Source: Candidatus Micrarchaeota archaeon
GTDB lineage: Archaea; Micrarchaeota; Micrarchaeia; Micrarchaeales; Micrarchaeaceae
Length of the DNA: 64,000 bases
Direction: 5' to 3'
Assembly (NCBI GenBank): GCA_027345565.1
Contig: DAHWIF010000005.1
Location: 6,058-70,057 of the forward strand
Shown here piece after piece: positions 12,455 to 29,064 of this stretch; position 1 is the first letter of the stretch, and each line of letters opens with the position of its first letter. The notes below the pieces were generated by a model. It was not told the DNA's origin. It ran no database searches and saw only the letters and a list, made by a program, of their open reading frames with translations. The translations under genes were made by a program, and so were the position numbers.

Positions 12455-12462
12455 ATGCGCAC

Positions 12463-12888: not shown

Positions 12889-12986
12889 AAAACCACAGCG
12901 CAGTCATCACTTAATATGCAAAACAAGCCTTTAAATTGCGATGTGTGGCTGCGTTTATGAATGTTTACTTAGCGGCTGTGGCTCAA

Positions 12987-13017
12987 GAAATCCCCGCCTT
13001 TCAAGGCGGCGGATGAA
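12987..13017 (+). repeat. Solo copy of the IS200/IS605-type left-end hairpin
   Basis: GAAATCCCCGCCTTTCAAGGCGGCGGATGAA (stem CCGCC/GGCGG) parallels the left end of the TnpB element at 16855-16887 (GAAATCCCACACCATTCATGGGTGGGATGAA), with the same GAAATCCC and GGATGAA flanks. Confidence 0.35.
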
Positions 13018-13184
13018 CTGAGCTATCGAATCATATGTGCAGTACATCGAATCGTATTATGCAGTAAGTGTACAAATATGAGCTGCAATTCCTGTTCATG
13101 GAGATCGCAAGGGCTATCTTGATTAAAGATAGTTAACTAAAAGTCCATACGAGCCAAAAACAATATCCAATATCCTATTAACTA

Positions 13185-13257
13185 TAGCTCCACCCAGATT
13201 CGAACTGGGGTTCCCAGGTCCAGAGCCTGGTGTCCTTGACCACTAGACGATGGAGCT
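13185..13257 (-). tRNA. tRNA-Gln (anticodon CUG)
   Basis: The reverse complement AGCTCCATCGTCTAGTGGTCAAGGACACCAGGCTCTGGACCTGGGAACCCCAGTTCGAATCTGGGTGGAGCTA folds as a cloverleaf. It has a 7-bp acceptor stem AGCUCCA/UGGAGCU, anticodon stem CCAGG/CCUGG, loop CUCUGGA and T-arm CCCAG-UUCGAAU-CUGGG. Confidence 0.9.
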
Positions 13258-13311
13258 GCGCAACTATATTGTTTGCTAACCTATTTTATAACTGTTGCCC
13301 AATTACTGCTG

Positions 13312-14004
13312 ATGATGCGCGAGAATACCTCATGGCATATAGAGGTCAGGGACATTATCATAGCAGACCTGGTGCTTATCATAGCTATGGCGCTCACCCT
13401 CTCCGGTGGCATATTCGGCGCCAGCAATTCGAAGTTCGCCGGCAACTTCCTGCTCCTCCTCCCGATCGCTGCGATAGGCGTGACGCTGAGTTTCGTCCTC
13501 CACGAGCTGATGCACAAGTTCGTAGCGCAGCACTACGGTGCGATAGCCGGCTTCCGCACTTCGTTCATGGGCCTCGGCATAACCCTTGCTACGGGCGCGT
13601 TCGGCTTCCTCCTCGGCATACCTGGGGCTACGATGATATACGCCCACAACTTCACTAGGAGGGAGAACGGGATAGTATCGCTCGCAGGCCCTCTCACGAA
13701 TTTTGTCGTGTTCGGAGCGTCGCTCGCACTCTTTTACATCCTTGCACCTCCAGCAGGCTCTTACCTGGGCGAGGCGCTCTACTTCACAATCTTCATAAGC
13801 ATACTCCTTGCCTTCTTCAACATGCTGCCTATATTCCCGCTTGATGGCAGCAAGGTGCTTGCGTGGAGCGCACCGGTCTACCTCGCCACCATAGGCACGA
13901 TATTCGTGCTCATGCTGATATTTACACCGATACCGCTCTCGACAATAATATTCATGCTGGTAATAGCCCTTTTCTTTTCGCTGTTTTACAGGCGCGCATT
14001 CTAG
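13312..14004 (+). CDS. Site-2 protease family (peptidase M50) intramembrane metalloprotease
   Basis: Motifs HELMHKF (HExxH) and NMLPIFPLDGSKV (NxxPxxxLDG) sit in a polytopic membrane protein. The ORF opens at TTG 13273, but ATG 13312 fits a TATA-like CTATTTTATAA at 13281-13291. Confidence 0.8.
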   Translation: MMRENTSWHIEVRDIIIADLVLIIAMALTLSGGIFGASNSKFAGNFLLLLPIAAIGVTLSFVLHELMHKFVAQHYGAIAGFRTSFMGLGITLATGAFGFLLGIPGATMIYAHNFTRRENGIVSLAGPLTNFVVFGASLALFYILAPPAGSYLGEALYFTIFISILLAFFNMLPIFPLDGSKVLAWSAPVYLATIGTIFVLMLIFTPIPLSTIIFMLVIALFFSLFYRRAF

Positions 14005-14051: not shown

Positions 14052-15332
14052 ATGGCGGAGAACGCTGCACCATCGACGAAGACGACGATAGATTCCCTGG
14101 TAGAGCTTCTCAAGAAGAAGGGGAAGATGGACCTTGCTTCGGTGTCCGTAGCCCTCGGAGTTGACCAGGCGATAGTGGAGAACTGGGCGAAGGTGCTTGA
14201 GAAGGGCAACATAGTAAAGATCACTTATGAAGTAGGGAAGATGTTCCTCACCATACCGACGCTCTCCGCGGAGCAAGAGGCGACAGAGCGCTCAAAGATA
14301 GAGGCGGGGATTTCGGGGCTGACGGCGCAGAGCGAGTCGCAGATGCTTTCCCTCGACAAGCTCACAGAGGCGCTAGAATCGATAAAAGGGTCTGTTGCAA
14401 CCGCGGAGAAGGCCGAGACCAGCGAGATGCCGGAAATACGCCGCGCGATAGCCGATCTCAACACAATATACGCAACGGTTGAGCAGAGGAATAGGGGACT
14501 TGAGCAGATGGCGAAGAAAGCCGAGCAGATATATGATGAGATAAACAAGAAGGTCACCGAGCTCAGCACAAGGCTTGGCGGCATAAGCGGCGAAGGGAGC
14601 ACGAAGGGAGTCGACGATGCCAGGCAGGAGCTTGCATCCATATCGAAATCGATCGCAAGCGTAAACTCAGAGATATCCGCGGTTGGCAAGAGCAGTTCCG
14701 AATCTATGGACCAGATAAGAAGGAGCGTGATAGAGCAGTCCAAGGCGCTGGAGAGGCAGATAGAGCAGTCTAAGAAGGAGATGAATGCTAAGCTTAGTGA
14801 ATACGCAAAACAGGCGGATGCCATAGAGAGCCAGCTCAAGGACCGGGTCAGGGCCATAAGCTCCAGCGTGGACGAGCTGAACAGTTTCTCCAAGGAGCGG
14901 GAGAAGCAGCTGCGCAGGCTGCGCGATTCCAGGGTCGAATTCAACGATTATTATGTGAAGATGAGCGAGGAGCTCAAAGCACAGAGGGCGTCGGCCGATG
15001 CGATATCAAAAGAGGTGGGTGAGAAGGTTGCGAAGCTGAAGGCGGGTTTCGGCGAAGCCGCAGAGATCGATGACACTCTTAGCACGTTGAAGAGCCAGAT
15101 GGCTGGCCTGGAGAAGGAGATAGCAGACGCGCGCCAGGATGTAACTGACATAATAAACAAGCTGCGCGCCTTAAACGCGCTCTCATCAGCGCCCACCGGG
15201 CAGGAGATGGCTGCGCTGAGCACCCTGCAGAAACGGGCATCAGCTGCAAGGTCAAAGGTCTCCAACATAAATGATAAAGTGGAGAACGCCAGGTCGGCCG
15301 CGAGCAAGATAGCTGAAAAGAAAAAGAAGTAG
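14052..15332 (+). CDS. wHTH-like N-terminal domain plus long coiled-coil protein; first gene of the filament biogenesis operon
   Basis: The N-terminus is IDSLVELLKKKGKMDLASVSVALGVDQAIVENWAKVLEKGNIVKITY. It is followed by about 350 aa of E/K/A/S-rich heptad-like sequence. A TATA-like GTATTAAAGG lies about 30 nt upstream. Confidence 0.65.
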   Translation: MAENAAPSTKTTIDSLVELLKKKGKMDLASVSVALGVDQAIVENWAKVLEKGNIVKITYEVGKMFLTIPTLSAEQEATERSKIEAGISGLTAQSESQMLSLDKLTEALESIKGSVATAEKAETSEMPEIRRAIADLNTIYATVEQRNRGLEQMAKKAEQIYDEINKKVTELSTRLGGISGEGSTKGVDDARQELASISKSIASVNSEISAVGKSSSESMDQIRRSVIEQSKALERQIEQSKKEMNAKLSEYAKQADAIESQLKDRVRAISSSVDELNSFSKEREKQLRRLRDSRVEFNDYYVKMSEELKAQRASADAISKEVGEKVAKLKAGFGEAAEIDDTLSTLKSQMAGLEKEIADARQDVTDIINKLRALNALSSAPTGQEMAALSTLQKRASAARSKVSNINDKVENARSAASKIAEKKKK

Positions 15333-15342
15333 GTAGGTTTGA

Positions 15343-16842
15343 TTGGAGCAAAAAGACGCCGAAAAGGTTCTTGCCGAGTACAGCCTTAATGCGAACGGCA
15401 TGCCGATAAATGTAAGGATAGCACAGACTGCGGATTACGTACCGATATACAACATGAGCATACCAGGCCTGAGCGACCCTACCAAACTACTCCTCTTCTC
15501 ACTAAGGGGTGAGCTTGTCGCAATGGTGACGGTTGACACCACGCGCATACAGGACAGGAAATATCTAGAGGAGGTAAACAGAAAGTACATCGAGACAAGC
15601 AGCACACTGATAGACAAGTACCTGCCAGCCACCCCAACCGAAACAAAATCGCTACTGATCGCCTATATAATAAACATGATGCTGGGCCTCGGGGACCTCG
15701 AGGCCCCGCTGGCCGATGACAACCTTGAGGAGATAACGGTCAACGGCGCTGCGAACATGATATGGGTGTTCCACAAGCAGTTTGGTTGGTGCAAGACAAA
15801 CATGAAGCTGGCCAACGAGGAGATGATATACGACTACGCCGAGCAGATAGGAAGGCGGGTCGGCAGGGAGATAAACAACCTATCTCCGCTCATGGATGCA
15901 GTGCTGCCTGACGGATCTAGGATGAACGCCACGCTCTACCCAGTGTCGCAAGTCGGCAACACCATAACGATAAGGAAGTTCGCGAAGAATCCGTGGACGA
16001 TGCCAGCTATGATTAAGAACCAGACAGTGAGCTCAGAGATAGGCGCGGTGGTGTGGTTGTGCATACAGAACGAGATAAGCCTTCTGATATCAGGGGGTAC
16101 CGCGAGCGGCAAGACCAGCCTGCTCAACTCCTCAAGCATTTTCTTTCCGCCGAGCCACAGGGTTGTGTCTGTCGAGGAGACCAGAGAGCTCACCCTGCCG
16201 AGCTTCCTCCAATGGGTGCCCATGGTCACCAGGCAGCCTAATCCAGAAGGCAAGGGAGAGGTGACACTTTACGACCTTACAATAAACGCGCTTAGGCAGA
16301 GGCCGGATATAGTCGTCGTTGGGGAGATAAGGGTCAAGAAGGATGCTGAGACCCTCTTCGAAGCGATACACACTGGCCACGCGGTGTACGGCACTGTGCA
16401 CGCGGACAATGCGCAGGATACGATAGTGAGGCTGACAAACCCCCCGATAGAGGTCCCGAAGATAATGCTGAACGCGCTTGGCGCCGTCATGGTCGCATTC
16501 AGGCACAGGAATAAGGGCATAAGGCGCATACTCGAATACGGTGAAGTGCTTAGGAGCGGGGATGTCAACGTGCTGTACAAATGGAGCCCGAGGAGCGACA
16601 GTTTTCCGCAGATAGGGGACATGACGAGGCTTGCCGACACGCTGATGCTGTATTCGGGGTACACCGCGAAGGAGATAGACGACGACATTGTGGAGAAGAT
16701 GTCCATACTCGACTGGATGGTGAAGAATGATGTCGTGTCTGTGGACGACGCTGGATTCGTAGTCGCCAACTATTACAAGAACAAGGACAAGGTTTTGGGC
16801 ATAGTGAGGGATAATGCAGCATTTTCAAGGGATATATTTTAA
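15343..16842 (+). CDS. Type II/IV secretion-family ATPase (archaeal FlaI/PilB/EpdL/TadA-like)
   Basis: Walker A GGTASGKTSLLN, Walker B/Asp box RPDIVVVGEIRVKKDAE and His box HTGHAVYGTVHAD are present. The start is TTG, 10 nt after the upstream stop. Confidence 0.9.
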   Translation: MEQKDAEKVLAEYSLNANGMPINVRIAQTADYVPIYNMSIPGLSDPTKLLLFSLRGELVAMVTVDTTRIQDRKYLEEVNRKYIETSSTLIDKYLPATPTETKSLLIAYIINMMLGLGDLEAPLADDNLEEITVNGAANMIWVFHKQFGWCKTNMKLANEEMIYDYAEQIGRRVGREINNLSPLMDAVLPDGSRMNATLYPVSQVGNTITIRKFAKNPWTMPAMIKNQTVSSEIGAVVWLCIQNEISLLISGGTASGKTSLLNSSSIFFPPSHRVVSVEETRELTLPSFLQWVPMVTRQPNPEGKGEVTLYDLTINALRQRPDIVVVGEIRVKKDAETLFEAIHTGHAVYGTVHADNAQDTIVRLTNPPIEVPKIMLNALGAVMVAFRHRNKGIRRILEYGEVLRSGDVNVLYKWSPRSDSFPQIGDMTRLADTLMLYSGYTAKEIDDDIVEKMSILDWMVKNDVVSVDDAGFVVANYYKNKDKVLGIVRDNAAFSRDIF

Positions 16843-16849
16843 CAACGTG

Positions 16850-18095
16850 AGCGGGAAATCCCACACCATTCATGGGTGGGATGAAAGCGAACCGCAGATA
16901 AGCATATAAAGATAAATTGGGATAAAAACAGAGGAACAAAAGGGAATGTGATGAACAGGGCATACAAATTCAGGATATATCCGACAAAATCTCAAGAGAA
17001 CGAAATGGATACTCACAGGTGGATTTCAAAGAACCTATGGAACGAGATGCTTGCATTCTGCAAGGAGACATACGAGAAGACAGGAAAGTTCCCGAACAGG
17101 AACCAATTGCAGATAATGACGAAACAGAAGGGCATGTATTCGCAGTCTTCGCAGGATATATCTCATAGGTTGGTGAAATCATTATGGACGTTCATTCAGC
17201 TTCGGAAAAAGGGAAAGAAAGCCGGTTTCCCAAGGTTTAGGAACATCGATAGGTCAAAATCAATTTATTACCCTCAATCTGGATTCTGGTTGGGCAAGAA
17301 ACTGAAGGTAACTCCCTTCGGTGAGATAAAGATAATAAAACACAGGGAGGTTGAAGGGCAGATAAAAACTCTGTCATTGAAACGTGAATCTGCTGGACGA
17401 TGGTATGCTGTATTCACCTCAGAACTTCCTGATATAGAACTCAAGCCAAATGGAAAGGGAAAGGTAGGAATGGATTTGGGGCTGAAGACATTTGCTACAT
17501 TGTCAAATGGGATAAAGATAAACAATCCTCGTCATGTAAAGAAATACGAAAGGAAACTTGCGATATGGCAAAGAAGAATGTCAAAAAGGGAAAAAGGAAG
17601 CCATAATAGGTGGAAGCAGAAACAGAAGGTAGCAATGCTGTACGAGAAGGTTTCCAACGTAAGAAAGGATTTTCAACATAAACTATCAAATCAATTCGTA
17701 AATTCATATTCATTGATTGCATTGGAGAAACTACAGTCAAAGAATATGGCACAGCAAAGATACGGAAAGTGGATAAATGACGCTGGATGGAATTCATTTG
17801 CAAACATGCTGACATACAAGGCTGAAAGTGCTGGGTGTCAGGTCGTATTCGTGAGTCCAGAGAATACGTCAAAGACGTGCCATGTCTGTGGGAACATGCA
17901 GGACATGCCTCTCAACGAAAGGACATATAATTGCGAGAGGTGCATGTCGGTAACGGACAGGGACATAAATGCATCTATAAATATACTTACAAAAGCTACT
18001 CTGGGACACAGAGGAAGTAACGCTTGTGGAGATGGCAAAAATGTTGTCTAAGAAGCAAGAAGCCCACACCCTTCAGGGGCGGGAGTATGTCACTG
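16850..18095 (+). mobile_element. TnpB-only IS200/IS605-family (IS1341-like) element
   Basis: A tnpB ORF is flanked by two related subterminal hairpins in direct orientation. The left one is ATCCCACACCATTCATGGGTGGGAT at 16858-16882. The right one is CCCACACCCTTCAGGGGCGGG at 18063-18083. No tnpA is present. The region is visibly more AT-rich than its flanks, and the exact ends are not determinable by eye. Confidence 0.7.
16951..18051 (+). CDS. tnpB: TnpB/OrfB RNA-guided endonuclease (IS605 OrfB family)
   Basis: The N-terminus MNRAYKFRIYPTKSQENEM is classic for OrfB. The protein also has GMDLGLK (RuvC-I Asp), a zinc finger CHVCG..x..CERC, and DRDINASINIL (RuvC-III). Confidence 0.9.
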   Translation: MNRAYKFRIYPTKSQENEMDTHRWISKNLWNEMLAFCKETYEKTGKFPNRNQLQIMTKQKGMYSQSSQDISHRLVKSLWTFIQLRKKGKKAGFPRFRNIDRSKSIYYPQSGFWLGKKLKVTPFGEIKIIKHREVEGQIKTLSLKRESAGRWYAVFTSELPDIELKPNGKGKVGMDLGLKTFATLSNGIKINNPRHVKKYERKLAIWQRRMSKREKGSHNRWKQKQKVAMLYEKVSNVRKDFQHKLSNQFVNSYSLIALEKLQSKNMAQQRYGKWINDAGWNSFANMLTYKAESAGCQVVFVSPENTSKTCHVCGNMQDMPLNERTYNCERCMSVTDRDINASINILTKATLGHRGSNACGDGKNVV

Positions 18096-18122: not shown

Positions 18123-18821
18123 ATGGCTGACCAAGCAGCAGAGAGCGCGTACACCAAGCTGCTGAAGCAGATAGAGCAGATTGAGGGTGCGGTCAGCGCT
18201 GTAGGGAGCGCAGCTATAGACATATCCGGCAGCTTCGCCAATGCACCAGGCAGGAAAGCACCGTCATATAGGGATATGCTTGTTAAGATAAATGAGATAG
18301 AGAAAAGTAAAGCAAGGGTGCCGAAGGCCGCTCCTGCTGTACAGGCAGCTGCTCCGCAAGCAGCGCAGCCAGTTGCCCCACAAGTGCAGGTGCAACAGGT
18401 GAAGCAGGAGGAGCTTGCACAGCTGCCAACAGAGCGGAAAGAGGGGACAAACGTATATGCGGGTAAGGAGCTTGCCGAGCTTGTAAGATCCCTGCCTGTA
18501 AAGATACCGAAAGTTGGCAAGCACAAATTGAAGAGAGAGAAGGATGCGAACCTTGTGCTGCCTAACCTTTCGCTGGTGGACCAGGTCGCTGAGCTGGAGC
18601 GCATACTCGATGCTATAAATGCCAAGGCGCTGCACGGTGACGAGCTAGATATGGTGGCCAGCGAGCTATACGGGCTCGTGGAGCGGGTCAATGCTGAGAA
18701 GAAGCAGCTAAAGAAGGGCAGGTCGTCAAATGCTGACGATTACCAGCTCCTGGAGCTTCGAGACCAGAGGATAGAGGCTGTGGCAGCCGCGCTAACGGAT
18801 GCAGAGAAAGCAGGTGAATGA
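18123..18821 (+). CDS. A/Q/P-rich, partly coiled-coil hypothetical protein in the filament operon
   Basis: The ORF opens at 18024 inside tnpB. The first ATG outside the IS element is at 18123 (MADQAAESAYTKLLKQ). Low-complexity AAPAVQAAAPQAAQPVAPQVQVQQVKQEE is present. Confidence 0.55.
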   Translation: MADQAAESAYTKLLKQIEQIEGAVSAVGSAAIDISGSFANAPGRKAPSYRDMLVKINEIEKSKARVPKAAPAVQAAAPQAAQPVAPQVQVQQVKQEELAQLPTERKEGTNVYAGKELAELVRSLPVKIPKVGKHKLKREKDANLVLPNLSLVDQVAELERILDAINAKALHGDELDMVASELYGLVERVNAEKKQLKKGRSSNADDYQLLELRDQRIEAVAAALTDAEKAGE

Positions 18822-19944: not shown

Positions 19945-20940
19945 ATGGCTATAAATTTTGAGAGGCTTGTCTCGCGCGGCCTGGCCATAAGGGTCTCCAG
20001 AGAGATGGACCTTGCGGGAGTGAAAAGCAGCGTAAACCGCATACTAGGCATCGCAATAATCGGCGCGCTGGCAATACTCATAATTATCTCCTTCCTGCTC
20101 GCCATCTCGCACACCACCGCCGCGTCTCTCGCCTTCGTCATCGGCGCAGGCACTGCGGCGTTCTATATAGCCATCATATACGTATTTCTTGAGTATAGGA
20201 TAGACAAGAGGCGCATGGGCATGGAGAGCATGCTGCCCGACTACCTGCAGATCGCATCAGCGAACCTGAGGAGCGGACTCTCCCTGGACAGGGCGATGAT
20301 GATTGCGGCGAGGCCAGAGTTCACGTTCTTCTCAAACGACATAAAGGACATGTCAAGGAGGGTGTTCGGCGGCGAGACGCTTGCGAATGCCCTGAGTGGA
20401 GTCGCTGTGAAGTACCGATCAAGGCAGCTCAACCACACTGTCAAGATGATCACCGAGTCGCTGCGTTACGGCGGTGCAATGGCGGACCTGCTCGACCAGG
20501 TAAGCAAGGACATACGCGGCCAGCAGATGATCCAGAAGGAGGTGTCGAGCCAGCTCTTCATGTACAGCATATTCATAGCGTTTGCTGGCATAATAGCTGC
20601 GCCGGTGCTCTACGGGCTGACAGGGCAGATGATAAGCGTCACTGATACCGTATGGAAGGGCATACTCGCTGCCAACCCAGGCGGTCTTCCGACGATAGGC
20701 GTGTCGTTCCTTAAACCATCACCGCCGCAAATAAGCATAGCTACTTACAGGTACTTCTCAATCGCAGCCATAATCGTGATAACGGGTTTCGCAGGGCTGA
20801 TAATGTCTGCGATATCTACAGGATCGGCTATGCGGGGCATAAAGTATCTTCCTCTGTTCATACTCGGCGGCCTAGGAATATATCTGATCATAGCGAAGCT
20901 CATAGCAGGCCTTTTCGCAGGCATCACTCCCGCAGCATGA
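19945..20940 (+). CDS. Single-domain T2SS-F family membrane protein (TadC/EpdK-like platform protein)
   Basis: The T2SSF-like domain reads LPDYLQIASANLRSGLSLDRAMMIAA..GETLANALSGVAV..ITESLRYGGAMADLLDQV, with N- and C-terminal TM helices. Confidence 0.8.
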   Translation: MAINFERLVSRGLAIRVSREMDLAGVKSSVNRILGIAIIGALAILIIISFLLAISHTTAASLAFVIGAGTAAFYIAIIYVFLEYRIDKRRMGMESMLPDYLQIASANLRSGLSLDRAMMIAARPEFTFFSNDIKDMSRRVFGGETLANALSGVAVKYRSRQLNHTVKMITESLRYGGAMADLLDQVSKDIRGQQMIQKEVSSQLFMYSIFIAFAGIIAAPVLYGLTGQMISVTDTVWKGILAANPGGLPTIGVSFLKPSPPQISIATYRYFSIAAIIVITGFAGLIMSAISTGSAMRGIKYLPLFILGGLGIYLIIAKLIAGLFAGITPAA

Positions 20941-23562
20941 TCATGTCGGTACAATCGATGCGCCGCACACTCCGTTTATCATGCTTGCGACCGTGCATGA
21001 CCCGGAAGAATTGCTTATGTAGCCGTTGTTGTTTCCTATTACATCATGCGTCTGGTTAAGCATTCCCTGGTATGGCACCGAGAGCGGCCAGTATGATACT
21101 GGGGTCATGCCGCTCACGCTGTTGTTCAGGTAAAGGCTCTGCACCTGGCTAGCATTCATGGCATTCGCGTATATCTGTATGTCTGCGGCATCGCCAATGA
21201 GATTCTGGCCCGCGCTGTTGCCGTATCCTATCTGGACCCCTGTGTTCTGGTTTGATACCGAAAACGGGTCGCTCAGTACGTTAGCTCCGTCAACATATAT
21301 GGTTTCTGTGCCTCCGGATATGACTGCCGTCATGAAATACCATTCGTTCGTGCTAAGCGACGTCGATGATTTGAATTCCGTGGCGTTTATCCAGTCGTAA
21401 AAGCAGGGGTTTATGGAGCTGCCGCATGCGCCTACGCCCCATGCATCCTCCTTCGCCACCAGCCAGCCCAAAGTGCTCGGCGCGGCTGCATAGTCCACCC
21501 AGCCAGATATCGTGAGCGGCGATGGTAGCTGCAACGCCGCAACGTTAGGCACCTGCACGTATGCATCGTTTGTGAAAGCCATGGCGCTAGGCACGCTCCC
21601 GTTAGTGACACCTAGCGCTCCAGCCTCGCTCTGCGCGGTTCCGCCCCGTGCTGCAAGCACGCGCGGACCCAAATAAAGGTGGCTTAGCGTGATGTTGCCG
21701 CACTGGTTCAGGTTGGCGCAGTTGAGCACGCCTTTCACCACGCTTGCATTGTAAAGGTTTGGCATGTTGGGGAATACAGGATCGGAAATGTATCCTGCCA
21801 TTTTGGTATACATCATATTCTGCGCTGTGCCGTTGTTGTTCTCTCCTGAATAATCGTTCGCGTTGCCGTTGAGCGGCCACCACCCGGCTAGGCTTGCGTT
21901 GGAGAGCGGCGTGCCATCCAGGCCATTGATGTAGAGCCGGGACACCTGGGCTGGCGAGAGCGCAGTTGTATAGATTTGCACATTTGCTATGTTGCCGGAG
22001 AAATAGAGGCCCCACACCTGCTCATACCCTATGATGGTGTTGCCAAGTCCGGACAACGGGGAGGATGCCGAGCCTGAGCTGTATGTCGGCCCTGGGGATG
22101 CCACTCCATCCACATATATCTTGAAGTCGGAAGGCGACACAGAGGTGCCTGACGGCGCATAGAATGTTCCGACTATCAAGTGCCATTTGCCGTTGTTCAC
22201 CGCCCTATTTGCGTTCAGCAGCTGTATTACGTTGTTACTGTCCAGCAGCACCGCCGGGGTGCCTGCTGTTGAGCCGCTGCAATAGCTACCAGGGCTGCCG
22301 CATGAAGGGCCTACAGCGAGGGTTATGCTTTGACCGGCCCCGCTTCCCCTGTCACTGACAACTGCTCCCTGCGACGCGGTTGTCTTCACCCACGCTGCAA
22401 TCGTGTAGGCGGTGACAGAGTTCTGCACGTACGGGACGGACACATAGCTGCTTGCGCCGTTGAATTGTGCATATCTGGTGTTAATGGCGCCAAGGCTGAA
22501 CGAGCCCTGCCCTGATCCCACAGATCCTTGCTGTTGCGACTGCTGCAGGTATGAGGGAGCGCCAGATGCCTGATAATAGTAGCCGTTCTGGATGCCTGTC
22601 TTCACCCGGGCGAGGTTCAGCAGGGCCAGTGCAGAGCCGTCAAGCAGCACAGATGTGCCGTTGCCTATCACGTTAGGGGATATGAAATCAGATGGATATA
22701 CCAGGTAAGGGAAGAGCGGTGTCAGCGACCCCAATGAATTTGTGACCAAGCCGCCCATGCTGCATATGTTCGAAGAGAGTGAGCCGGCATCAGGGGTGAC
22801 AAGTATGTAGTTTGCATTCTGGAATCCTGACGGCACGTTGCTGCATGTCGGCGTGCCACCTATGTATACGGCGGTGCCGTATGCGAACATGAACGGGCTC
22901 CTGCTCCCAGACAGCGCGCTCGTATTCCCTATCATGGTCTGTGGCTGTGCCGCGCCAGTCACGTAAGATGTGACGCCTCTCTCCGCGCCAAGCAGGCTCC
23001 GTGTCCCGTTTATGCTTACGTTGGCTGTAGATGAGATGGGGTAGTTGATTATTCCGGTGCTGAGGTTCAGAGTCACAAGGTCTGTCAGCCTGGCGGTGAG
23101 GTTCAGCGGCGCTCCCTGGTAGACGCTGATTGACAGGTTGCTGATAGTGAAGCTGCCGCCCTGCAGCGACGCCAGTCCCTGCAGCGCAGAGGTGTAGTTG
23201 ACTAGCATGGCCCCTCCCATGTACGATAGCATATTAGTTCCGTATATCGTCCCGTTGTCCATCAGGCTTGCCAGAGCATATGCGGTGTTGTTTATGAAAT
23301 GGTACTTCCTCAATGATGGTGTGGATTCGTACACTGTAAGCGCGTTAAGCGAATTATTCAGGCTAGCCGCCAGGAAGCTGCCAGAACCGCTGCTTATGAA
23401 GCCCAGCAGCACAGAGGAGCTGAACGCAGCAGATGTGGCGGAAGTGAGATGGTCGTAGCTGATGCTTATATCCACATAACTTGAAAGCTCGCCAAGCATG
23501 AGTATGAATAGGACAAGCATTGCCAGCGTAAGCAGTACCCCCTTCTTGTTCTTCATCTCCAT
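20941..23562 (-). CDS. Prepilin-like N-terminus plus multi-LamG/concanavalin-like secreted protein (873 aa)
   Basis: The N-terminus is MEMKNKKG|VLLTLAMLVLFILML. LamG_3-type cores are present (QFNGASSYVSVP..AYTIAAWVKT) together with the linkers AGWWPLNGNANDYSGENNNG and SYWPLSVPYQG. It is the last gene of a four-gene minus-strand operon and overlaps the upstream gene by 10 nt. Confidence 0.8.
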   Translation of the reverse strand: MEMKNKKGVLLTLAMLVLFILMLGELSSYVDISISYDHLTSATSAAFSSSVLLGFISSGSGSFLAASLNNSLNALTVYESTPSLRKYHFINNTAYALASLMDNGTIYGTNMLSYMGGAMLVNYTSALQGLASLQGGSFTISNLSISVYQGAPLNLTARLTDLVTLNLSTGIINYPISSTANVSINGTRSLLGAERGVTSYVTGAAQPQTMIGNTSALSGSRSPFMFAYGTAVYIGGTPTCSNVPSGFQNANYILVTPDAGSLSSNICSMGGLVTNSLGSLTPLFPYLVYPSDFISPNVIGNGTSVLLDGSALALLNLARVKTGIQNGYYYQASGAPSYLQQSQQQGSVGSGQGSFSLGAINTRYAQFNGASSYVSVPYVQNSVTAYTIAAWVKTTASQGAVVSDRGSGAGQSITLAVGPSCGSPGSYCSGSTAGTPAVLLDSNNVIQLLNANRAVNNGKWHLIVGTFYAPSGTSVSPSDFKIYVDGVASPGPTYSSGSASSPLSGLGNTIIGYEQVWGLYFSGNIANVQIYTTALSPAQVSRLYINGLDGTPLSNASLAGWWPLNGNANDYSGENNNGTAQNMMYTKMAGYISDPVFPNMPNLYNASVVKGVLNCANLNQCGNITLSHLYLGPRVLAARGGTAQSEAGALGVTNGSVPSAMAFTNDAYVQVPNVAALQLPSPLTISGWVDYAAAPSTLGWLVAKEDAWGVGACGSSINPCFYDWINATEFKSSTSLSTNEWYFMTAVISGGTETIYVDGANVLSDPFSVSNQNTGVQIGYGNSAGQNLIGDAADIQIYANAMNASQVQSLYLNNSVSGMTPVSYWPLSVPYQGMLNQTHDVIGNNNGYISNSSGSCTVASMINGVCGASIVPT

Positions 23563-25727
23563 AATACCACGCTAACGTTGTATAGAGGCGCATTCGCGCT
23601 GGCGCTGATGCTCATCGGGAACGCCGCGGCGCTGACCTGATAAGCTGCGCTGAGTGACGGCGGAGTGAAGTTCACTCTTGCGTATGTAACGCCTGAAGGA
23701 TATCCGATGTTGCCGTTGCCGCTGTAGTCGTTGGTGTCGCCAAGCAGGGGCCACCACCCCGCTATGGTGGAGTTCACCGGCAGGCCGGCGATGCCCTCGT
23801 CGTAAAGCGCTGTTATGCCCTGCTGTTGGAGCGGCACGGCATATATCTGCAGGTCCGAGATCGTCCCGTTGAACGGCAGGCCGCTCCCGCTGGCGTCGTT
23901 GCCTATGCCGAGGTTGTTGTTGTCGAACGATATCATGTTTGTCGTATTGAAAGAGCCTATAAGCGAAGCATTTACATAGATGCTCGCCTTGTTCGTAACG
24001 GAGCTCCATACAGCAGTGATGTAGTACCATCTGTTGGCTGCGGGTTTGAACGACACCTCGTAGGAGCAGCCCCAGAAGTTGGAGGCCATGAAGAGGAGCC
24101 CGTAAGCAGTGCCGCAGCCGTTGGCGTTGCTGCCTATGTACTCCAACGCGTAGTCGTTAGTCTTGTTAACGATCGCCTGCGTGTCAGGATACGCATTGGA
24201 GTTGAAGCGCACCCATGCCGATATCGTTATGCCGGTGTTTGGCGAGTCGAGCGATGCGGAGCTCGGCACGCTGACATAGCTGTTTATGCCGTTGAACTGC
24301 GCCAGGTGAAGCGACGGCGCATACGTGCCGTTTATGTATACGCCGATGTTGGGGGTGCTGTACGAGCTGTTGAGTAGGCTTGTTGCACACCCCCCATAGC
24401 CATTCACGTACATGCTTGCTATCGCCTGCAGCACGCTGCCTCCAGGCACAGCTCTGCACGTGCCGAATACGTATACGGTATTGCCGGCAGATACGTATGC
24501 GTTGCCATTGGCGAGCGCCACATCCTGGAATAGAGCAGAGCTGGATTGCGGCAGCGTAGTGTCCCATACCGGGGAGCTGTTGTCCGATAGCTTATATGAC
24601 AGGAAATGGTCGTTCGCCGCCAGCATATAGAAGGCTCCAGCCGTGGATGACGGCGTGGAATTTGATAGCGTGCTCTCTATGTGGAATTGCTTCGTGGTGC
24701 AGCCGCAGCTGACGTTTATCTGCCATACGTTGGTCTGCATCGGGAAGTAGATGTTGCCGCCCTCAAGCGTTCCGCCGCCGAATGAGCTTACCCCGGGTAT
24801 GTTTATCGACCAGAGCTGGAGCCCGCTCATGCTGAGCCCGACTATCTGGTTTGCGCTGCCGATTACTATGAGATTGCCCGCTATCAACGGAGTGGTTGAT
24901 GTCGTTATGGACCACGTGTAGCTCCAGATCTGCTGCAATGCGCCTCCGACTACGGCAAAGCCCAGTACGTAGTTTTGGGATGCCGGAGCGCTGGTGCTGA
25001 CTATGAACTCGCCTGAGCCGTACGCTGGCACGGTTGCTATGTTGGGCAGCGATTTGTGGAAGAAGCTGCCGTTAATCGGGCTCATTAGCACTACGTTGGC
25101 TTGGGCGCCGAACGCGATATAGCCGCCGCCCAGGGACATCGGCGTCGACTGCGCAGAAGGCAGCTGTGTAGACTTCCAGCTGAGCGAGCCGTTCCTCTGC
25201 ACCGCGGAGACATAGCCTGTGGAGTTGCCGTATATTATCATGTTGTTGTAGATTATCGGGTAGAGTACATTACCGTAGACCGCCTTGCTCAGGATCGGGC
25301 TGCCTGTCGTGGCGTTTATCACATACAGGGTGTTGCCTGATGCAAATGCAGCCATGCCGTAGCCTACAGACACAGGAGAGCTTATCGGACCGCTTGCCGT
25401 GTGGGTGAAGAGGAGCTGCGGAAGCTGCGGCCCCACAGAGGACGATGCTGCGAGCGGGCCTCCGTTGCCGAACGACTGCCATGTGCTTGCGGAGCCTAGA
25501 GTCGCGTTCGCTGCGGCCATCGCATAGAGTGACCCCGCGTCGGCAGCCACCGTCAGCCCTGTCCCCATGAGGCTCTGTGCGACGCTGAACGCCTGCGAGG
25601 TCAGCGGCTGGAATACCGGTGTGCCTGCGAAGTGCACATACGCGAGTATGCCTATGGCCGCTCCTGCAACTATCAGCGAGAACGCCGCATCGATCGTGAA
25701 AACGAATCCCTTGACATTTTGTCCCAT
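23553..25727 (-). CDS. Prepilin-like N-terminus plus PQQ-like beta-propeller plus C-terminal LamG domain (724 aa)
   Basis: The start MGQNVKG|FVFTIDAAFSLIVAGAAIGILAY shares one nt with the upstream stop (TGATG). Repeats such as GNTLYVINATTGSPILS, GYVSAVQRNGSLSWKS, NQIVGLSMSGLQLWSI and GNTVYVFG are typical of PQQ/BamB-like propeller blades. The LamG region has AQFNGINSYVSVP and AGWWPLLGDTNDYSGNGNIG. Confidence 0.75.
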   Translation of the reverse strand: MGQNVKGFVFTIDAAFSLIVAGAAIGILAYVHFAGTPVFQPLTSQAFSVAQSLMGTGLTVAADAGSLYAMAAANATLGSASTWQSFGNGGPLAASSSVGPQLPQLLFTHTASGPISSPVSVGYGMAAFASGNTLYVINATTGSPILSKAVYGNVLYPIIYNNMIIYGNSTGYVSAVQRNGSLSWKSTQLPSAQSTPMSLGGGYIAFGAQANVVLMSPINGSFFHKSLPNIATVPAYGSGEFIVSTSAPASQNYVLGFAVVGGALQQIWSYTWSITTSTTPLIAGNLIVIGSANQIVGLSMSGLQLWSINIPGVSSFGGGTLEGGNIYFPMQTNVWQINVSCGCTTKQFHIESTLSNSTPSSTAGAFYMLAANDHFLSYKLSDNSSPVWDTTLPQSSSALFQDVALANGNAYVSAGNTVYVFGTCRAVPGGSVLQAIASMYVNGYGGCATSLLNSSYSTPNIGVYINGTYAPSLHLAQFNGINSYVSVPSSASLDSPNTGITISAWVRFNSNAYPDTQAIVNKTNDYALEYIGSNANGCGTAYGLLFMASNFWGCSYEVSFKPAANRWYYITAVWSSVTNKASIYVNASLIGSFNTTNMISFDNNNLGIGNDASGSGLPFNGTISDLQIYAVPLQQQGITALYDEGIAGLPVNSTIAGWWPLLGDTNDYSGNGNIGYPSGVTYARVNFTPPSLSAAYQVSAAAFPMSISASANAPLYNVSVVLWR

Positions 25728-26269
25728 CAGCTCACCGACGATACGCTGCCGCTCCACACCATCACCGTTATCTGCGCAGCCTCTCCGTTTATGAATGCAC
25801 TCTTCCTGCTTATGTAAGTCGTTACAGAGTTGCCTGTCAGCGGGCTCCTGCCCATCGTTATATTGAGCGTGCTGCTGTTTATGATTATATAGTAGTTGAA
25901 GCTCGTGCCTAGGTCCTGCCCTGCCATAGAGTAGTTGTAATCCACCATTGACATCAGCGCGTACATCTTCGCGGCCGAGAGGCTTGGAGACCCCTGTGAC
26001 TGTGCAAGCCCTATCCCTATATCGCCCCAGGTGCTTACTGACGATGTGTTGACCGCAGACTGCCAGTCCGCAGGACTTCCTGTAGACATTAGGTTCTGCG
26101 CCACGGCTTCCGACTGAAGCTGCATTATGTAGCTGGTCCCGCCTGTAGCAAGCGAAAGCTGGTTGCTTATGTCAAGCCATGCGATTGCCAATATCGTTAT
26201 CGCCGCCAGGAATATTATCATTGCGAAGAGCGCGTCAAAGCTCCAGAACTGTGCCCTAAAATTGTCCAA
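25727..26269 (-). CDS. Small pilin-like protein (180 aa, class III signal peptide)
   Basis: The TTG start gives MDNFRA|QFWSFDALFAMIIFLAAITILAIAW. An SD-like GGGTGAT lies 7 nt upstream. Its size and architecture fit a structural pilin. Confidence 0.7.
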   Translation of the reverse strand: MDNFRAQFWSFDALFAMIIFLAAITILAIAWLDISNQLSLATGGTSYIMQLQSEAVAQNLMSTGSPADWQSAVNTSSVSTWGDIGIGLAQSQGSPSLSAAKMYALMSMVDYNYSMAGQDLGTSFNYYIIINSSTLNITMGRSPLTGNSVTTYISRKSAFINGEAAQITVMVWSGSVSSVS

Positions 26270-26275
26270 TCATAA

Positions 26276-28972
26276 TCACCCTAGCGTTGTATCAAGGCCT
26301 ACGGCCCGCGGCATGCCCTGCAGGTAGAGCTGTTGTATCTGGTATTGTGAAAGCGATGTATTGTATATCTGCGCATCCGCAACCCCGGCAGTGCAGCTTC
26401 CGATAGACCAACTTGACTGCTGCAGGTTCTGCGTTGTTGATAAGGACAGCGTATTCGAGACTCCGTCCAGCGACACGGCGTACTTGCCGTTAGAATAGCC
26501 GAGCGTAACGAAGCTCCATCTGTTTAGGGGCACACTGAGCTGGCTGTATACCGGGGTTTGAACGCTGGTAGCCGTGCTGGCACCGAGATATCCGCTCTGA
26601 TTTATAATGAGATTGAATCCGTCACCATCTGCGCCCTGGCTCCCAATGGACGCCACGTAGCATAAAGAGACTGAATTGAAGCTGATCGGGTATACCCACG
26701 CAGCGACAGTCTTCGGTCCGGATCCGAGTATGGAGTTAGGTGCGTCTGGTATATCCACACCGGTTCCTTGGAAGGAGAACGCGGCAAGCTGCTGGCCCAC
26801 TTTAGCAGTGTTGTTGTAGCTTATTGAGTTGAATGCCACATCTATCGCATTTGATGATGCGTATGCATGGTTTGCATAGTTGTTCGCGTTGCCATTTAGC
26901 GGCCACCAGGCTTGGATGCCCTGGCCCTGCAGCGGTACAGAGGTCAGGCCTTGGGAATACATTGTTGCTACCTGGCCCGCAGTGAGCGACCCATTGTATA
27001 TCTGCACGTTGGCTATCGTCCCGTTGAAGACGTAATTTAGTCCGGAGTATTCCCCTATATACTCCTCGGATGAGCTTCCTGGAGCTATCGCTGTGCGGTA
27101 GCTTCCTGCGAGGGTGCCGTTCACATATATGTCAAGCACGTTGCCGTTATATGTGCCTGCAACGAAATACCATGTGTTGAGATTAGGCGTTGTCGGATCA
27201 CAGACCCTCAGTGTGTTTACCCCTATCTTAAACATATATGCAGTCGGGTTGCTCACCTGGTTATCACAGTTCGAATCGCTTTCAAGAAGCATGATGTGAT
27301 TATTGCTTACCGGGTTCCCGCTCTCTATGACTTCGTTCTTGTAGCTGTTCAGGTGCACCCATGCGGCTATGGTGAAGTAAGGGAGGCTGAGCCCTGCTGA
27401 TTGTATGAAGCTGGTTGCTCCGTTGAAATTTGCTGCGTTGAATGCGGTGTTCGATGTGACCGGCAGGTACACCGCCTTAGCCTGTCCGGTCCCTATCACA
27501 AGAGAGCCGACGTCCCCCTTGCCGCTGAAGTCAGGCACGCTCAATCCATCGTTTACGCTAAGCGGCCACCACCCCGCCAGGTCGTTTGCCGTGGTAAGGT
27601 TCCCATTGAATGGTTCCGCGTATATCGTAGCATTGCCCGAGAAACCGTTAGCCGTAAGCAGCGTGCTCTGCTGCCCGGTCGATGTGGTGTTGGCTGCCAC
27701 GCTGTTAGAACCGCCAAGCAGGTAGTTTGAGGTGAAGAAGCCCATCGGCACATGCGGAGCCGCCACGCCTCCAAGTGTTGATACGCTGGCCAGCGTGTCC
27801 ACCGAGTACTGATACGATATATCATTCGCCGCCCCGTTGTTGCCGTAGCCGCTGTAATCGTTCGCGTTGCCGTTGAGCGGCCACCATCCCACCAGGTTGC
27901 CAAGGCTAGCCGGAGGCGCGGCGGCCGGCCCCAGCGAGTATATCTGGCCGATCTGGTTTGCAGGCAGCGAGGCGTTGTAGATCTGCGCGTTTATCACATA
28001 TCCGTTAAGGTAAGTGGCGTTCGCGGGCGATCCTCCTATTATCACATTGGCAGACCCTGTTATGCTTACTCCTGGGCTGGATGTGGCTACCGACAATCCA
28101 TCGACGTACAGCTCCGCAATCCCAGAGCTCTTGTTATACGTTGCAGCTATATCGTACAGAGCGCCAGGGACTATCGAGTTCTGGCCGATTAGCTTAAACG
28201 CCCCTCCCCAGTTTATCAGGAATATCGGGGCGCCGCCGTTCGTTATTGAAAGCATGAATGGCTGCGCCGCAGCGCTAATCTCACCGATTACTGGGTTGTC
28301 GAGATAGGGCGTTGTTGAACCTGTATTCAGGCTTTTCAGCTCAACCCACGCATCGAGCGTTATGCTGTTGCCTATCGTGAGTACGCTGTTTGACTGGACG
28401 CTGATCAAGCTGTTTGCTCCGTTGAAATACGGTGCAGCAACGGAGCCTGGCTGCGAAAGCACAGGCGGCCCGGCTAGGCTCGCAGGCTGTGGGGATGGGA
28501 CATCGATGAATATGCTGCCGCCAGCATTCGCCACCTTGACATAGCCGGTATAGATAGGTATCCTGTATACGTTTATCCCGTTGCCGCTAGATACGAGCGT
28601 GCCGTTTATGTAGAGGTTGCGCGCGCTGCTCTGGGCTATTCCGGTTATGATTTCCTTCCCAACCGTCGTATTGGCTATTACTAGCCCTGTTGTTGATATC
28701 GATATGTTATAAGATACAAGGCCTATGCCAGCGCTTAGCGGCACGAATGCGGAATAGCCGCTGCCGGCCTGCAGCGCCTGGTTTATGTAGCTCGCTACGC
28801 TCTGGGATATGAGCTGCATTACAGATGCCTGTTGCGCAGCGAGCGCAACCGATCTCTCGTTCGCTATCAGGGCGAATACAACAATGAATACAATCAGCAC
28901 TATTGCATATATTATCATGAATTCTAGAGCTATCTGCGACCTCGCGCCAGCATGCCGCCACCGCCCCCCCAT
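26276..28972 (-). CDS. Prepilin-like N-terminus plus triple LamG/concanavalin-like array (898 aa)
   Basis: The ORF opens at 29056, but ATG 28972 gives MGGRWRHAGARS|QIALEFMIIYAIVLIVFIVVFALI (Q at +1, E at +5) and leaves a 92-nt divergent promoter region. There are three WWPL linkers: VGWWPLNGNANDYSGYGNNG, AGWWPLSVNDGLSVPDFSGKGDVG and QAWWPLNGNANNYANH. Confidence 0.8.
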   Translation of the reverse strand: MGGRWRHAGARSQIALEFMIIYAIVLIVFIVVFALIANERSVALAAQQASVMQLISQSVASYINQALQAGSGYSAFVPLSAGIGLVSYNISISTTGLVIANTTVGKEIITGIAQSSARNLYINGTLVSSGNGINVYRIPIYTGYVKVANAGGSIFIDVPSPQPASLAGPPVLSQPGSVAAPYFNGANSLISVQSNSVLTIGNSITLDAWVELKSLNTGSTTPYLDNPVIGEISAAAQPFMLSITNGGAPIFLINWGGAFKLIGQNSIVPGALYDIAATYNKSSGIAELYVDGLSVATSSPGVSITGSANVIIGGSPANATYLNGYVINAQIYNASLPANQIGQIYSLGPAAAPPASLGNLVGWWPLNGNANDYSGYGNNGAANDISYQYSVDTLASVSTLGGVAAPHVPMGFFTSNYLLGGSNSVAANTTSTGQQSTLLTANGFSGNATIYAEPFNGNLTTANDLAGWWPLSVNDGLSVPDFSGKGDVGSLVIGTGQAKAVYLPVTSNTAFNAANFNGATSFIQSAGLSLPYFTIAAWVHLNSYKNEVIESGNPVSNNHIMLLESDSNCDNQVSNPTAYMFKIGVNTLRVCDPTTPNLNTWYFVAGTYNGNVLDIYVNGTLAGSYRTAIAPGSSSEEYIGEYSGLNYVFNGTIANVQIYNGSLTAGQVATMYSQGLTSVPLQGQGIQAWWPLNGNANNYANHAYASSNAIDVAFNSISYNNTAKVGQQLAAFSFQGTGVDIPDAPNSILGSGPKTVAAWVYPISFNSVSLCYVASIGSQGADGDGFNLIINQSGYLGASTATSVQTPVYSQLSVPLNRWSFVTLGYSNGKYAVSLDGVSNTLSLSTTQNLQQSSWSIGSCTAGVADAQIYNTSLSQYQIQQLYLQGMPRAVGLDTTLG

Positions 28973-28997
28973 TGAACCTTCTACTAAATCAATGGCA

Positions 28998-29044
28998 AAT
29001 AATAAATAGTCTTGTTGGGACGCAGAAGGAATCAGAATAAATAG
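28998..29044. promoter_or_regulatory. Divergent promoter pair: two AATAAATAG TATA-like boxes
   Basis: AATAATAAATAG at 28998-29009 lies 26 nt from the minus-strand ATG at 28972. AATAAATAG at 29036-29044 lies 21 nt from the plus-strand ATG at 29065. Both arrangements imply leaderless transcripts. Confidence 0.4.
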
Positions 29045-29064
29045 TTTGGCTGCCATAAAGCATC

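Follow-up and report, generated by a model that had tools for sequence, protein, structure and literature searches.

Introduction

Archaeal type IV filaments of clade 1, or system 1, which are of the Epd-pilus type, are defined by a split platform and an ATPase of arCOG01819 (PMC4858521; preprint 10.64898/2026.04.22.720090). They are represented by the Epd pilus of Methanococcus maripaludis and occur in Thermococcales, Methanobacteriales and some DPANN archaea. Several proteins with class III (prepilin-type) signals are encoded there in one co-transcribed cluster, with Q at position +1 and E at +5, and the major pilin is often encoded elsewhere. These systems also include large adhesin-like proteins whose modules are LamG-related (DUF2341) or galactose-binding. 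The locus described here resembles them in these respects, including the arCOG01819-type ATPase and the two-gene platform. It lies in 64,000 nucleotides (nt) of contig DAHWIF010000005.1 (positions 6,058 to 70,057; assembly GCA_027345565.1) from a Candidatus (Ca.) Micrarchaeota archaeon. This whole stretch is called the window below and all coordinates refer to it. Four adjacent genes, P1 to P4, converge there with an operon for type IV filament machinery. In our judgement, P1-P4 are likely to be pilin-like substrates of a filament machine of system 1 type, transcribed together, coupled in translation and processed by an EppA/FlaK-type peptidase. P2 would be the core subunit, and P1, P3 and P4 adhesive modular pilins.

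Orthologous loci have been published for two Micrarchaeota, Ca. Mancarchaeum acidiphilum Mia14 (MIA14_0170-0177; Golyshina 2017, PMC5498576, accessible part) and Ca. Micrarchaeum harzensis A_DKE (Micr_00441-00449; Krause 2022, PMC8975820). As in the window, they comprise a coiled-coil protein, a CpaF-family ATPase, a small protein, two TadC proteins and four convergent genes including LamG genes, with M50 and TrkA genes upstream. In its accessible part, the paper by Golyshina et al. places the Mia14 locus in the Methanococci/Thermococci group of type IV pili (T4P) and calls the LamG genes 'linked' to T4P loci (PMC5498576). The T4P lists found in the accessible text of the two papers hold only the ATPase, the two TadC proteins and one 'secreted component' (MIA14_0176); the LamG genes appear there as 'linked' or hypothetical. 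The text of these papers that was examined describes neither class III N-termini on all four products nor the coupling of their genes and the variable cassettes presented below.

Results

P1 to P4 carry prepilin-type N-termini

The four genes are as follows.

26276-28972, minus strand: P1, 898 amino acids (aa) from the ATG at 28972; modular pilin-like protein with leader MGGRWRHAGARS and predicted mature N-terminus QIALEF
25727-26269, minus strand: P2, 180 aa, TTG start; pilin-sized protein with a [KR][AG]/QFWSFD N-terminus (the slash marks the predicted cleavage site)
23553-25727, minus strand: P3, 724 aa from the ATG at 25727; modular pilin-like protein
20941-23562, minus strand: P4, 873 aa from the ATG at 23562; modular pilin-like protein

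These open reading frames (ORFs) and starts had been proposed in a preliminary description of the same sequence and were confirmed when ORFs and starts were re-examined. The P2 start must be the TTG because an in-frame TGA sits immediately upstream, and with any other start the conserved N-terminus would be lost. A longer P1 ORF starting at 29056 is unlikely: the relative L002 has a stop 5 codons before the equivalent MGG.

The N-terminus of P1 reads MGGRWRHAGARS/QIALEF, with Q at +1, E at +5 and Ser at -1. Those of P2 and P3 are MDNFRA/QFWSFDALF and MGQNVKG/FVFTIDAAF. P4 starts with MEMKNKKG/VLLTLAML and has no acidic residue at +5/+6. All four leaders are short and basic, with K or R at -2 and a small residue at -1 (RS/Q, RA/Q, KG/F and KG/V). 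A hydrophobic stretch of 22-25 residues directly follows the predicted cleavage site; its 22-residue windows have a mean Kyte-Doolittle hydropathy of 1.9-2.7 and at most one charge. Q+1 and E+5 of P1 are also present in the EppA-processed DUF361 pilins of M. maripaludis (PMC3875500). We then scanned the window with a permissive class III pattern ([KR][GAS], then 22 hydrophobic residues including no more than one charge, at most 30 aa from the start). It was found in 8 of 253 window ORFs of at least 60 aa, and four of these eight are the adjacent P1-P4. The other four are three apparent membrane or giant-surface-protein ORFs and one 82-aa ORF, probably spurious. Judged by these residues, the N-termini of P1-P4 carry the archaeal class III signature, and cleavage is predicted.

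Conservation across Micrarchaeota

The survey comprised 87 fetched loci (80 genome representatives plus fragments), in which P1 was scored in 70, P3 in 77 and P4 in 74. Over the four families (about 70-80 genomes), K or R stands at -2 in 94-100% of genomes and G, A or S at -1 in 76-100%, depending on the family. In P1, -2 is K/R in 66 of 70 and -1 is A/G/S in 53 of 70, with L or F in the other 17; Q+1 is present in 70/70 and E+5 nearly always. P3 has K/R at -2 and G/A at -1 in all 77, then F/I-x-F-T-x-D-A. For P4 the counts are 71/74 (K/R at -2) and 73/74 (G/A at -1); an I, V or Q follows, and after it a leucine-rich helix. P2 leaders range from 3 to 20 aa in the alignment; [KR][AG]-QFWSFD is invariant or nearly so, and Q7, F8, W9, S10 and D12 are invariant. 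The +1 residue is thus an invariant Q in both P1 and P2. The earlier proposal that every product starts with a prepilin-type N-terminus is borne out by these class III-type signals, conserved over about 70-80 genomes. In one subclade (L054, L059, L061, L062, L066, L078, L084 and others) P1 and P2 start M-[KR]-L-Q, with a 3-residue leader. In the same subclade an additional small ORF directly precedes P1.

The P2 family forms 34 clusters in the protein collection and gave 117 matches among species-representative genomes. Nearly all of these bear the label Ca. Micrarchaeota/Micrarchaeia, among them Ca. Micrarchaeum sp. A_DKE, which is in culture; the few exceptions are Marsarchaeota by label, plus a single contig of a Methanothrix metagenome-assembled genome (MAG). 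By these matches the P2 family appears restricted to Micrarchaeota. The Methanothrix sp. MAG locus (L033, JAVYSI010000038.1) has a Micrarchaeota-type P1-P4 operon, which probably reflects a binning error, not transfer.

Wherever a locus is long enough to judge, the order P1, P2, P3, P4 is kept almost without exception. The wider arrangement, in which these genes meet the platform genes F2 and F1, U, the ATPase gene E and the coiled-coil gene CC on the opposite strand, in this order, is near-universal. It persists down to relatives whose P2 is only 37% identical, and does so even with different outer flanks.

Gene junctions and transcription

The TGA of P1 is separated from the TTG of P2 by 6 nt (TTATGA), and GGGTGAT lies just upstream. 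P2 and P3 share one base in TGATG (25725-25729). P3 and P4 overlap by 10 nt (ATGGAGATGA), or by 4 nt (ATGA) if the second ATG, at 23556, is used. The three junctions are exactly as the preliminary description had given them. As a measure of packing, we took the distance from the upstream stop to the next hydrophobic helix, which holds the gap, the start codon and the leader. In 66 non-redundant loci the medians were 27.5, 22.5 and 18 nt for P1/P2, P2/P3 and P3/P4. Junctions are tight across these loci, which makes close packing an ancestral trait and no peculiarity of this genome.

One promoter element was identified ahead of P1.

28995-29006, minus strand: TATA-like box TATTTATTATTT, ending about 22-24 nt before the P1 ATG; predicted function

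A TATA-like box had been noted ahead of the first gene, and TATTTATTATTT, at 29006-28995, is the only strong motif of this kind ahead of the operon. Both motif and spacing recur in many Micrarchaeota loci. Another A/T-rich patch is found some 10-20 nt ahead of the P1 ATG, and many relatives have the same arrangement. Archaeal TATA boxes are typically centred near -26/-27. The position of the box would therefore put the transcription start at the P1 ATG or a few nucleotides from it, and a leaderless or nearly leaderless P1 mRNA is plausible.

No run of five or more T (T5+) is present on the sense strand of the operon. This is the norm for almost all genes of the window, so the result means only that the operon has no internal oligo-T terminator. 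The absence of T5+ runs was dropped as a special feature of the operon, being normal for sense strands across the window. No terminator-like T-run follows P4 either: on that strand the first T5+ run comes only after 1.85 kb, at 19089. The stops of P4 and of the convergent gene F2 abut, with 0 nt between them (TGATCA, 20938-20943), and the same 0-nt junction is found in L002. Neither gene has an oligo-T terminator shortly after it.

Published transcript data are available for the A_DKE orthologues (PMC8975820 Suppl. Data S5), whose assignment was checked by sequence and gene sizes. The values, in transcripts per million (TPM), are 0.92 for Micr_00449 (P1), 0.69 for Micr_00448 (P2), 0.70 for Micr_00447 (P3) and 0.74 for Micr_00446 (P4). 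The highest mRNA level in the A_DKE locus is that of Micr_00441, the CC orthologue (PMC8975820 Suppl. Data S5). The idea that P1-P4 are co-produced subunits of one assembly is supported by order and junctions that hold phylum-wide, by the adjoining filament machinery and by these near-equal mRNAs.

A convergent operon encodes the filament machinery

The operon that converges on P4 contains CC, the ATPase gene, U, F1 and F2.

14052-15332, plus strand: CC, 426-aa coiled-coil cytoplasmic protein with only weak coiled-coil-type matches; conserved head of the machinery operon
15343-16842, plus strand: ATPase E, type IV filament assembly ATPase of the T2SSE/VirB11 superfamily (PF00437, E=2e-33)
16948-18051, plus strand: TnpB insertion, IS200/IS605-type OrfB (Pfam OrfB_IS605, Cas12f1-like_TNB and HTH, helix-turn-helix)
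18123-18821, plus strand: U, conserved soluble protein of about 232 aa, always between the ATPase and platform genes; start set by alignment with the relative L008
18822-19940, plus strand: F1, platform half 1, single T2SSF domain, TadC-like (PF00482, E=2.1e-15)
19945-20940, plus strand: F2, platform half 2, single T2SSF domain, TadC-like (PF00482, E=2.5e-15); position conserved

The ATPase shares 63% identity over 495 aa with A_DKE Micr_00442, a protein annotated as arCOG01819 (CpaF family). Its assignment to arCOG01819 is by this orthology; matches to NCBIfam FlaI/TadA-like models are below cut-off. U has no Pfam or NCBIfam match. The interval between the flanks 16898 and 18123 measures 1225 bp in the window but 294 bp in the closest relative, L008, which has no TnpB gene there; TnpB is not part of the ancestral locus. 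The insertion at 16948-18051 is a TnpB-only element of the IS200/IS605 type. Another Micrarchaeota genome, L070, has TnpB copies inside the same locus. Just upstream of the machinery, at 10953-14004, are TrkA-N membrane proteins and an M50 (site-2 protease-like) peptidase. The same TrkA/M50 neighbours precede the A_DKE locus (Micr_00440 and upstream genes), and synteny therefore exceeds the pilus genes.

On gene content and order, the locus fits archaeal system 1 (Epd-like) pili. It also differs from them. Neither EppA, nor FleN/MinD, nor an approximately 70-aa (arCOG06620-type) pilin is encoded in the locus or window, the genes form two convergent operons, and the P1-P4 families have no detectable relatives in the profile libraries searched. 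A scan of the ORFs of the 64-kb window found no FleN/MinD gene. EppA and FleN/MinD are 'often' present in system 1 and are not obligatory (PMC4858521). In A_DKE, one EppA/PulO-type peptidase of arCOG02300, Micr_00634, is encoded elsewhere in the genome, as are two stand-alone pilins, Micr_00375 with 159 aa and Micr_00425 with 68 aa; the 68-aa gene is Flp/PilA-like and adjoins the other T4P locus of A_DKE (PMC8975820 Suppl. Data S5). For Mia14, the accessible part of the genome paper gives one FlaK-like peptidase, MIA14_0570, and a stand-alone pilin, MIA14_0118 (PMC5498576).

Domain architecture of P1 to P4

P1 contains three LamG (Laminin_G_3) domains (PF13385, E=7e-48, 3 stretches) and P4 contains two (PF13385, E=1e-31, 2 stretches). 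P3 matches Pfam PQQ_2 and Laminin_G_3, with a propeller at about aa 104-422 followed by a C-terminal LamG. Its AlphaFold2 (AF2) model (predicted local distance difference test, pLDDT, 70) shows an N-terminal helix at 12-33, an 8-bladed propeller and a jelly-roll, and a Foldseek search returned BamB at E=1e-15. The LamG modules of P1, P3 and P4 are paralogues of about 30% identity. With a pilin-type N-terminus joined to independent modules of known fold, P1, P3 and P4 are, by predicted architecture, modular pilins.

P2 is the only one of the four products with the size of a pilin, as previously noted (180 aa vs 724-898 aa). No Pfam or NCBIfam match was obtained for it. In its AF2 model (pLDDT 82), a helix spans residues 6-60 and is followed by an alpha/beta head with a 4-stranded sheet. 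This 'lollipop', a 55-residue N-terminal helix with an alpha/beta head, is pilin-like in outline as modelled. The N-terminal 76 or so alignment columns of P2 and P3 are homologous (hhalign 94%, E=1.8e-7). Charged residues are very scarce in P1-P4, and N-x-S/T sequons number 1.7-2.4 per 100 aa, as would be expected for exposed proteins of an acidophile.

Several family assignments were tried and set aside. Searching the PDB with the P2 model gave only insignificant matches to ribosomal uS3-like folds (template modelling score about 0.25), and no pilin family was assigned. A phmmer search of P1 against PDB sequences returned nothing. Matches to the NCBIfam 'TafC family fimbrial protein' reach 17-40 bits, vs a cut-off of 410 bits, and lie in the LamG regions; they were not taken as evidence of membership. 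Homology of P3 to PilY1 was rejected, as the propeller is of the generic 8-bladed BamB/PQQ type. P1-P4 are not the Micrarchaeota surface layer (S-layer) either: they have no PF05123 match and the TPM of the A_DKE orthologues is low. The S-layer protein of Micrarchaeota contains S_layer_N (PF05123), is the most abundant protein of the cell and is the product of a different gene.

Proposed assembly of the four products

The following model draws directly on sequence features, conservation, synteny, domains and mosaic variability, and on transcript equality from the published orthologue data; from these we infer cleavage, assembly, filament location and ligand. A single promoter upstream of P1 would drive a polycistronic mRNA of about 8 kb, probably leaderless or nearly so. 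Short or overlapping junctions would couple translation and yield similar amounts of the four proteins. Each product would enter the membrane by its N-terminal hydrophobic helix. A prepilin peptidase of the EppA/FlaK type, encoded elsewhere in the genome, would then cut the short basic leader after [KR][G/A/S]. The ATPase and the two half-size platform proteins would lift the subunits from the membrane into a helical bundle held together by their N-terminal helices, with P2 as the small core pilin. P1, P3 and P4 would carry their modules, lectin-type LamG domains and a beta-propeller, beyond the S-layer, where the likely role of these modules would be to bind glycans on the glycan-rich surface of a wall-less Thermoplasmatales host.

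Within this model, the most likely arrangement, to which we give about an even chance, is a four-subunit minor-pilin or tip complex carried on a shaft of P2 or of a stand-alone pilin. A tip complex is favoured because there are four subunits, P4 lacks an acidic residue at +5/+6, the stoichiometry is apparently equal and the locus has no highly expressed small pilin. This recalls FimU-PilVWX/PilY1 of Pseudomonas aeruginosa and GspH-I-J-K of the type II secretion system, where four pilin-like proteins are co-expressed and one lacks the acidic +5 residue (here P4). The P. aeruginosa proteins are also associated with a large beta-propeller adhesin, PilY1, which is cited by Makarova 2016 (PMC4858521). 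The propeller of P3 differs in being fused to a pilin N-terminus and in its 8-bladed BamB/PQQ type; PilY1 is not in its top 50 fold matches. Another parallel is found in Streptococcus sanguinis. PilC of this bacterium carries a lectin-type module. There, PilA, PilB and PilC join a pilin module to a large functional module, and the minor-pilin complex binds glycans (PMC8179133 and PMC9934059, accessible parts). The likeness is functional and architectural only: the S. sanguinis pilus is a bacterial T4P with machinery of an unrelated lineage, its pilins are much smaller with one added module each, and there is no sequence relationship.

Several observations weigh against the assignment of P1-P4 as processed filament subunits. 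The P1 N-terminus scores 15.3 bits against PF04021 (Class_IIIsignal), below the cut-off of 23.7 bits, and the N-termini of P2, P3 and P4 match no pilin or class III profile. PF04021 is nevertheless the top Pfam family, below threshold, for this N-terminus and for 20 of 56 P1 orthologues (best E=0.0018). When compared with PDB folds, the P2 model has no significant match to a solved pilin. At -1, P1 has Ser in this genome and the subclade mentioned above has Leu, Met or Phe in P1 and P2; these last three residues do not form a documented prepilin peptidase site. Among the scanned ORFs of the 64-kb window there is no A24/FlaK/EppA prepilin peptidase, no further pilin-like ORF down to 35 aa and no small major-pilin candidate of 35-130 aa. 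Transcript levels of P1-P4 in A_DKE are modest (PMC8975820 Suppl. Data S5), and the accessible part of the A_DKE culture paper does not mention pili (PMC8975820). The TnpB element interrupts the machinery operon, lying between the genes for the ATPase and U, and might leave the filament system impaired in this genome. Finally, LamG domains also serve protein-protein contacts.

Alternative explanations

Two other views concern the form of the assembly. They are sub-variants of the proposed reading, a system 1-type machine with P1-P4 as substrates, and not exclusive alternatives to it. In the first, P2 is the major pilin and makes up the shaft, P1, P3 and P4 are low-abundance decorating or tip subunits, and no external pilin is needed. 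P2 has the appropriate size, is present in every locus and has the most conserved N-terminus of the four. Its model combines a long alpha-1 helix with a compact head, and the window holds no other pilin gene. However, P2 is the second cistron, starts here with TTG and is translationally coupled to an 898-aa protein, and its A_DKE mRNA (0.69 TPM) is no higher than those of P1, P3 and P4. Stand-alone pilin genes exist in A_DKE (Micr_00375, Micr_00425) and in Mia14 (MIA14_0118), and the major pilin of Epd-type systems is usually encoded away from the locus (PMC4858521). We regard P2 as the shaft as a tentative proposal with the balance of evidence on the other side.

Second, the class III signals might be used to extract LamG proteins for display, as in a bindosome or pseudopilus. 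A short stalk would then cross the pseudoperiplasm, which is 20-25 nm wide, and present the lectins at the S-layer surface. In the Sulfolobus bindosome (Bas), sugar-binding proteins carry class III signals. As in this system, classified as subsystem 4I (preprint 10.64898/2026.04.22.720090), class III signals would be present on large binding proteins that are not of the filament type and are served by a T4P-like ATPase and platform. Of the four substrates, three are functional-domain proteins of 720-900 aa, equal stoichiometry is implied by the coupling and by the flat A_DKE TPM values, the locus has no shaft pilin, and no pili are reported for A_DKE in the accessible part of PMC8975820. On the other hand, the ATPase is not a BasE equivalog (125 bits against the BasE model, cut-off 1000), and the substrates are LamG/propeller proteins, not solute-binding proteins of ABC (ATP-binding cassette) transporters. 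Pili-like connections between ARMAN and Thermoplasmatales have been seen by electron microscopy (work cited in the accessible part of PMC5498576), and M. maripaludis builds genuine pili with its related system 1 (PMC4858521; 10.64898/2026.04.22.720090). A display device of this kind appears unlikely.

A third explanation, by which P1-P4 are ordinary Sec-dependent lectins, secreted or anchored by their N-termini, whose proximity to the machinery is meaningless, is very improbable: LamG proteins are expanded in Micrarchaeota genomes generally (PMC5498576, accessible part), P2-P4 lack pilin-profile matches and -1 is not always G or A, but the hydrophobic segment (22-25 residues) comes directly after [KR][G/A/S] with no AxA-type c-region, invariant positions cluster around the putative cleavage site, the convergent ATPase/platform arrangement is found in nearly every surveyed genome even with different flanks, and the Micrarchaeota S-layer protein is of a different family (PF05123).

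Hypervariable LamG cassettes in P1 and P4

We compared the window with its closest relative, L008, with which it shares 85-89% nt identity over the locus, and calculated protein identity per 50 aa. At the DNA level, two segments of the locus fail to align.

26909-27412, minus strand: P1 cassette, covering about aa 518-690 between the boundary motifs FNG (aa 516) and WWPL (aa 689)
21973-22443, minus strand: P4 cassette, about aa 366-535, starting at FNG (aa 367)

In P1, identity is 14-26% over about aa 518-690 and 76-96% over most of the protein. In P4, it is 16-26% over about aa 366-535 and 78-92% over most of the protein. P2, P3, the ATPase and the platform genes are uniform, at 89-96% overall. 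Each variable segment corresponds to one LamG core that opens at the F-N-G strand, and that of P1 closes exactly at the next W-W-P-L. The boundary motifs are the only nucleotide-level repeats in the operon. A 29-nt stretch that encodes WWPLNGNAND is identical in P4 (21854-21882) and P1 (27858-27886), and the LamG domains around it are only about 30% identical in protein. The boundary motif WWPLNGNANDYSG is encoded by this stretch, and its identity in the two genes suggests homogenisation or a recombination boundary.

Local collapse of identity is also seen in other close pairs, namely L023/L027 (P1), L031/L035 (P4) and L033/L049 (P4). In L008, the modules in the P1 and P4 slots are 75% identical to each other and resemble the C-terminal LamG of the window P4 (69% and 54%). 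Among the fetched loci, the best match to the P1 cassette of the window has 41% identity, and the P4 cassette has only 3 weak matches. A metagenome scan with the P1 cassette found only relatives of 30-32% identity; the same cassette was not found in a different backbone.

The boundaries are sharp and lie at domain edges, one cassette is common to two genes in L008, and unrelated cassettes occupy a near-identical backbone. Whole-module recombination is therefore favoured over gradual divergence. A mechanism based on a diversity-generating retroelement was discarded: differences are spread throughout the cassettes (14-26% identity), not only at adenine-templated positions. From this pattern we infer recombination as the mechanism, and we propose, with considerable doubt, that P1 and P4 each have a slot in which a whole LamG core may be replaced by recombination at FNG/WWPLNGNANDYSG boundaries, changing or broadening host recognition. 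If the assembly works as modelled, the exchangeable LamG cores of P1 and P4 probably set its binding specificity.

Other features of the window

A giant orphan protein of 2269 aa, possibly another surface protein, is encoded by an ORF at 3065-9874 (plus strand); its N-terminus has a hydrophobic segment, and no Pfam family matched at E<=1e-3. At 37625-38934 (plus strand), there is an AbiEii-family nucleotidyltransferase toxin gene, and the next ORF has a weak AbiEi antitoxin-like match. A second AbiEii gene, at 50786-52205 (plus strand), is preceded by an ORF with no Pfam match and is located inside a glycosyltransferase cluster (44893-45969, 50042-50716 and 52213-53340). Genes for an archaeal histone and Hel308 neighbour the locus in the window, in agreement with the P2 matches, by which the window comes from a DPANN archaeon of the phylum Micrarchaeota.

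Discussion

Pili of archaeal system 1 that include adhesin-like proteins with class III signals are already known as a type, and the locus brings no new mechanism. What is gained is the assignment of P1-P4 and the description of the cassettes. In the literature searched, neither the class III N-termini on all four genes of a conserved, coupled operon nor the exchangeable P1/P4 cassettes appear to be stated. Annotation is refined as well, as the Mia14 and A_DKE papers list most of these genes as hypothetical or LamG, not as pilus subunits.

How DPANN archaea recognise their hosts and attach to them is largely unknown, and Micrarchaeota have no genetic system. The locus described here would be a near-universal type IV filament locus of Micrarchaeota, with four co-expressed substrates that have prepilin-type N-termini and bear lectin-type and propeller modules. 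The predicted cleavage sites of P1-P4, the peptidase orthologous to Micr_00634 and the two hypervariable LamG cassettes are testable candidates in attachment, and their predicted features make P1-P4 good candidates for the parts that grip the host. If whole LamG cores are indeed exchanged, the process would be functionally comparable to the antigenic variation of pilins or to the swapping of modules in phage receptor-binding proteins. The cassette slots would then give Micrarchaeota a means to change or broaden recognition of the host surface, and host range would be predictable from sequence.

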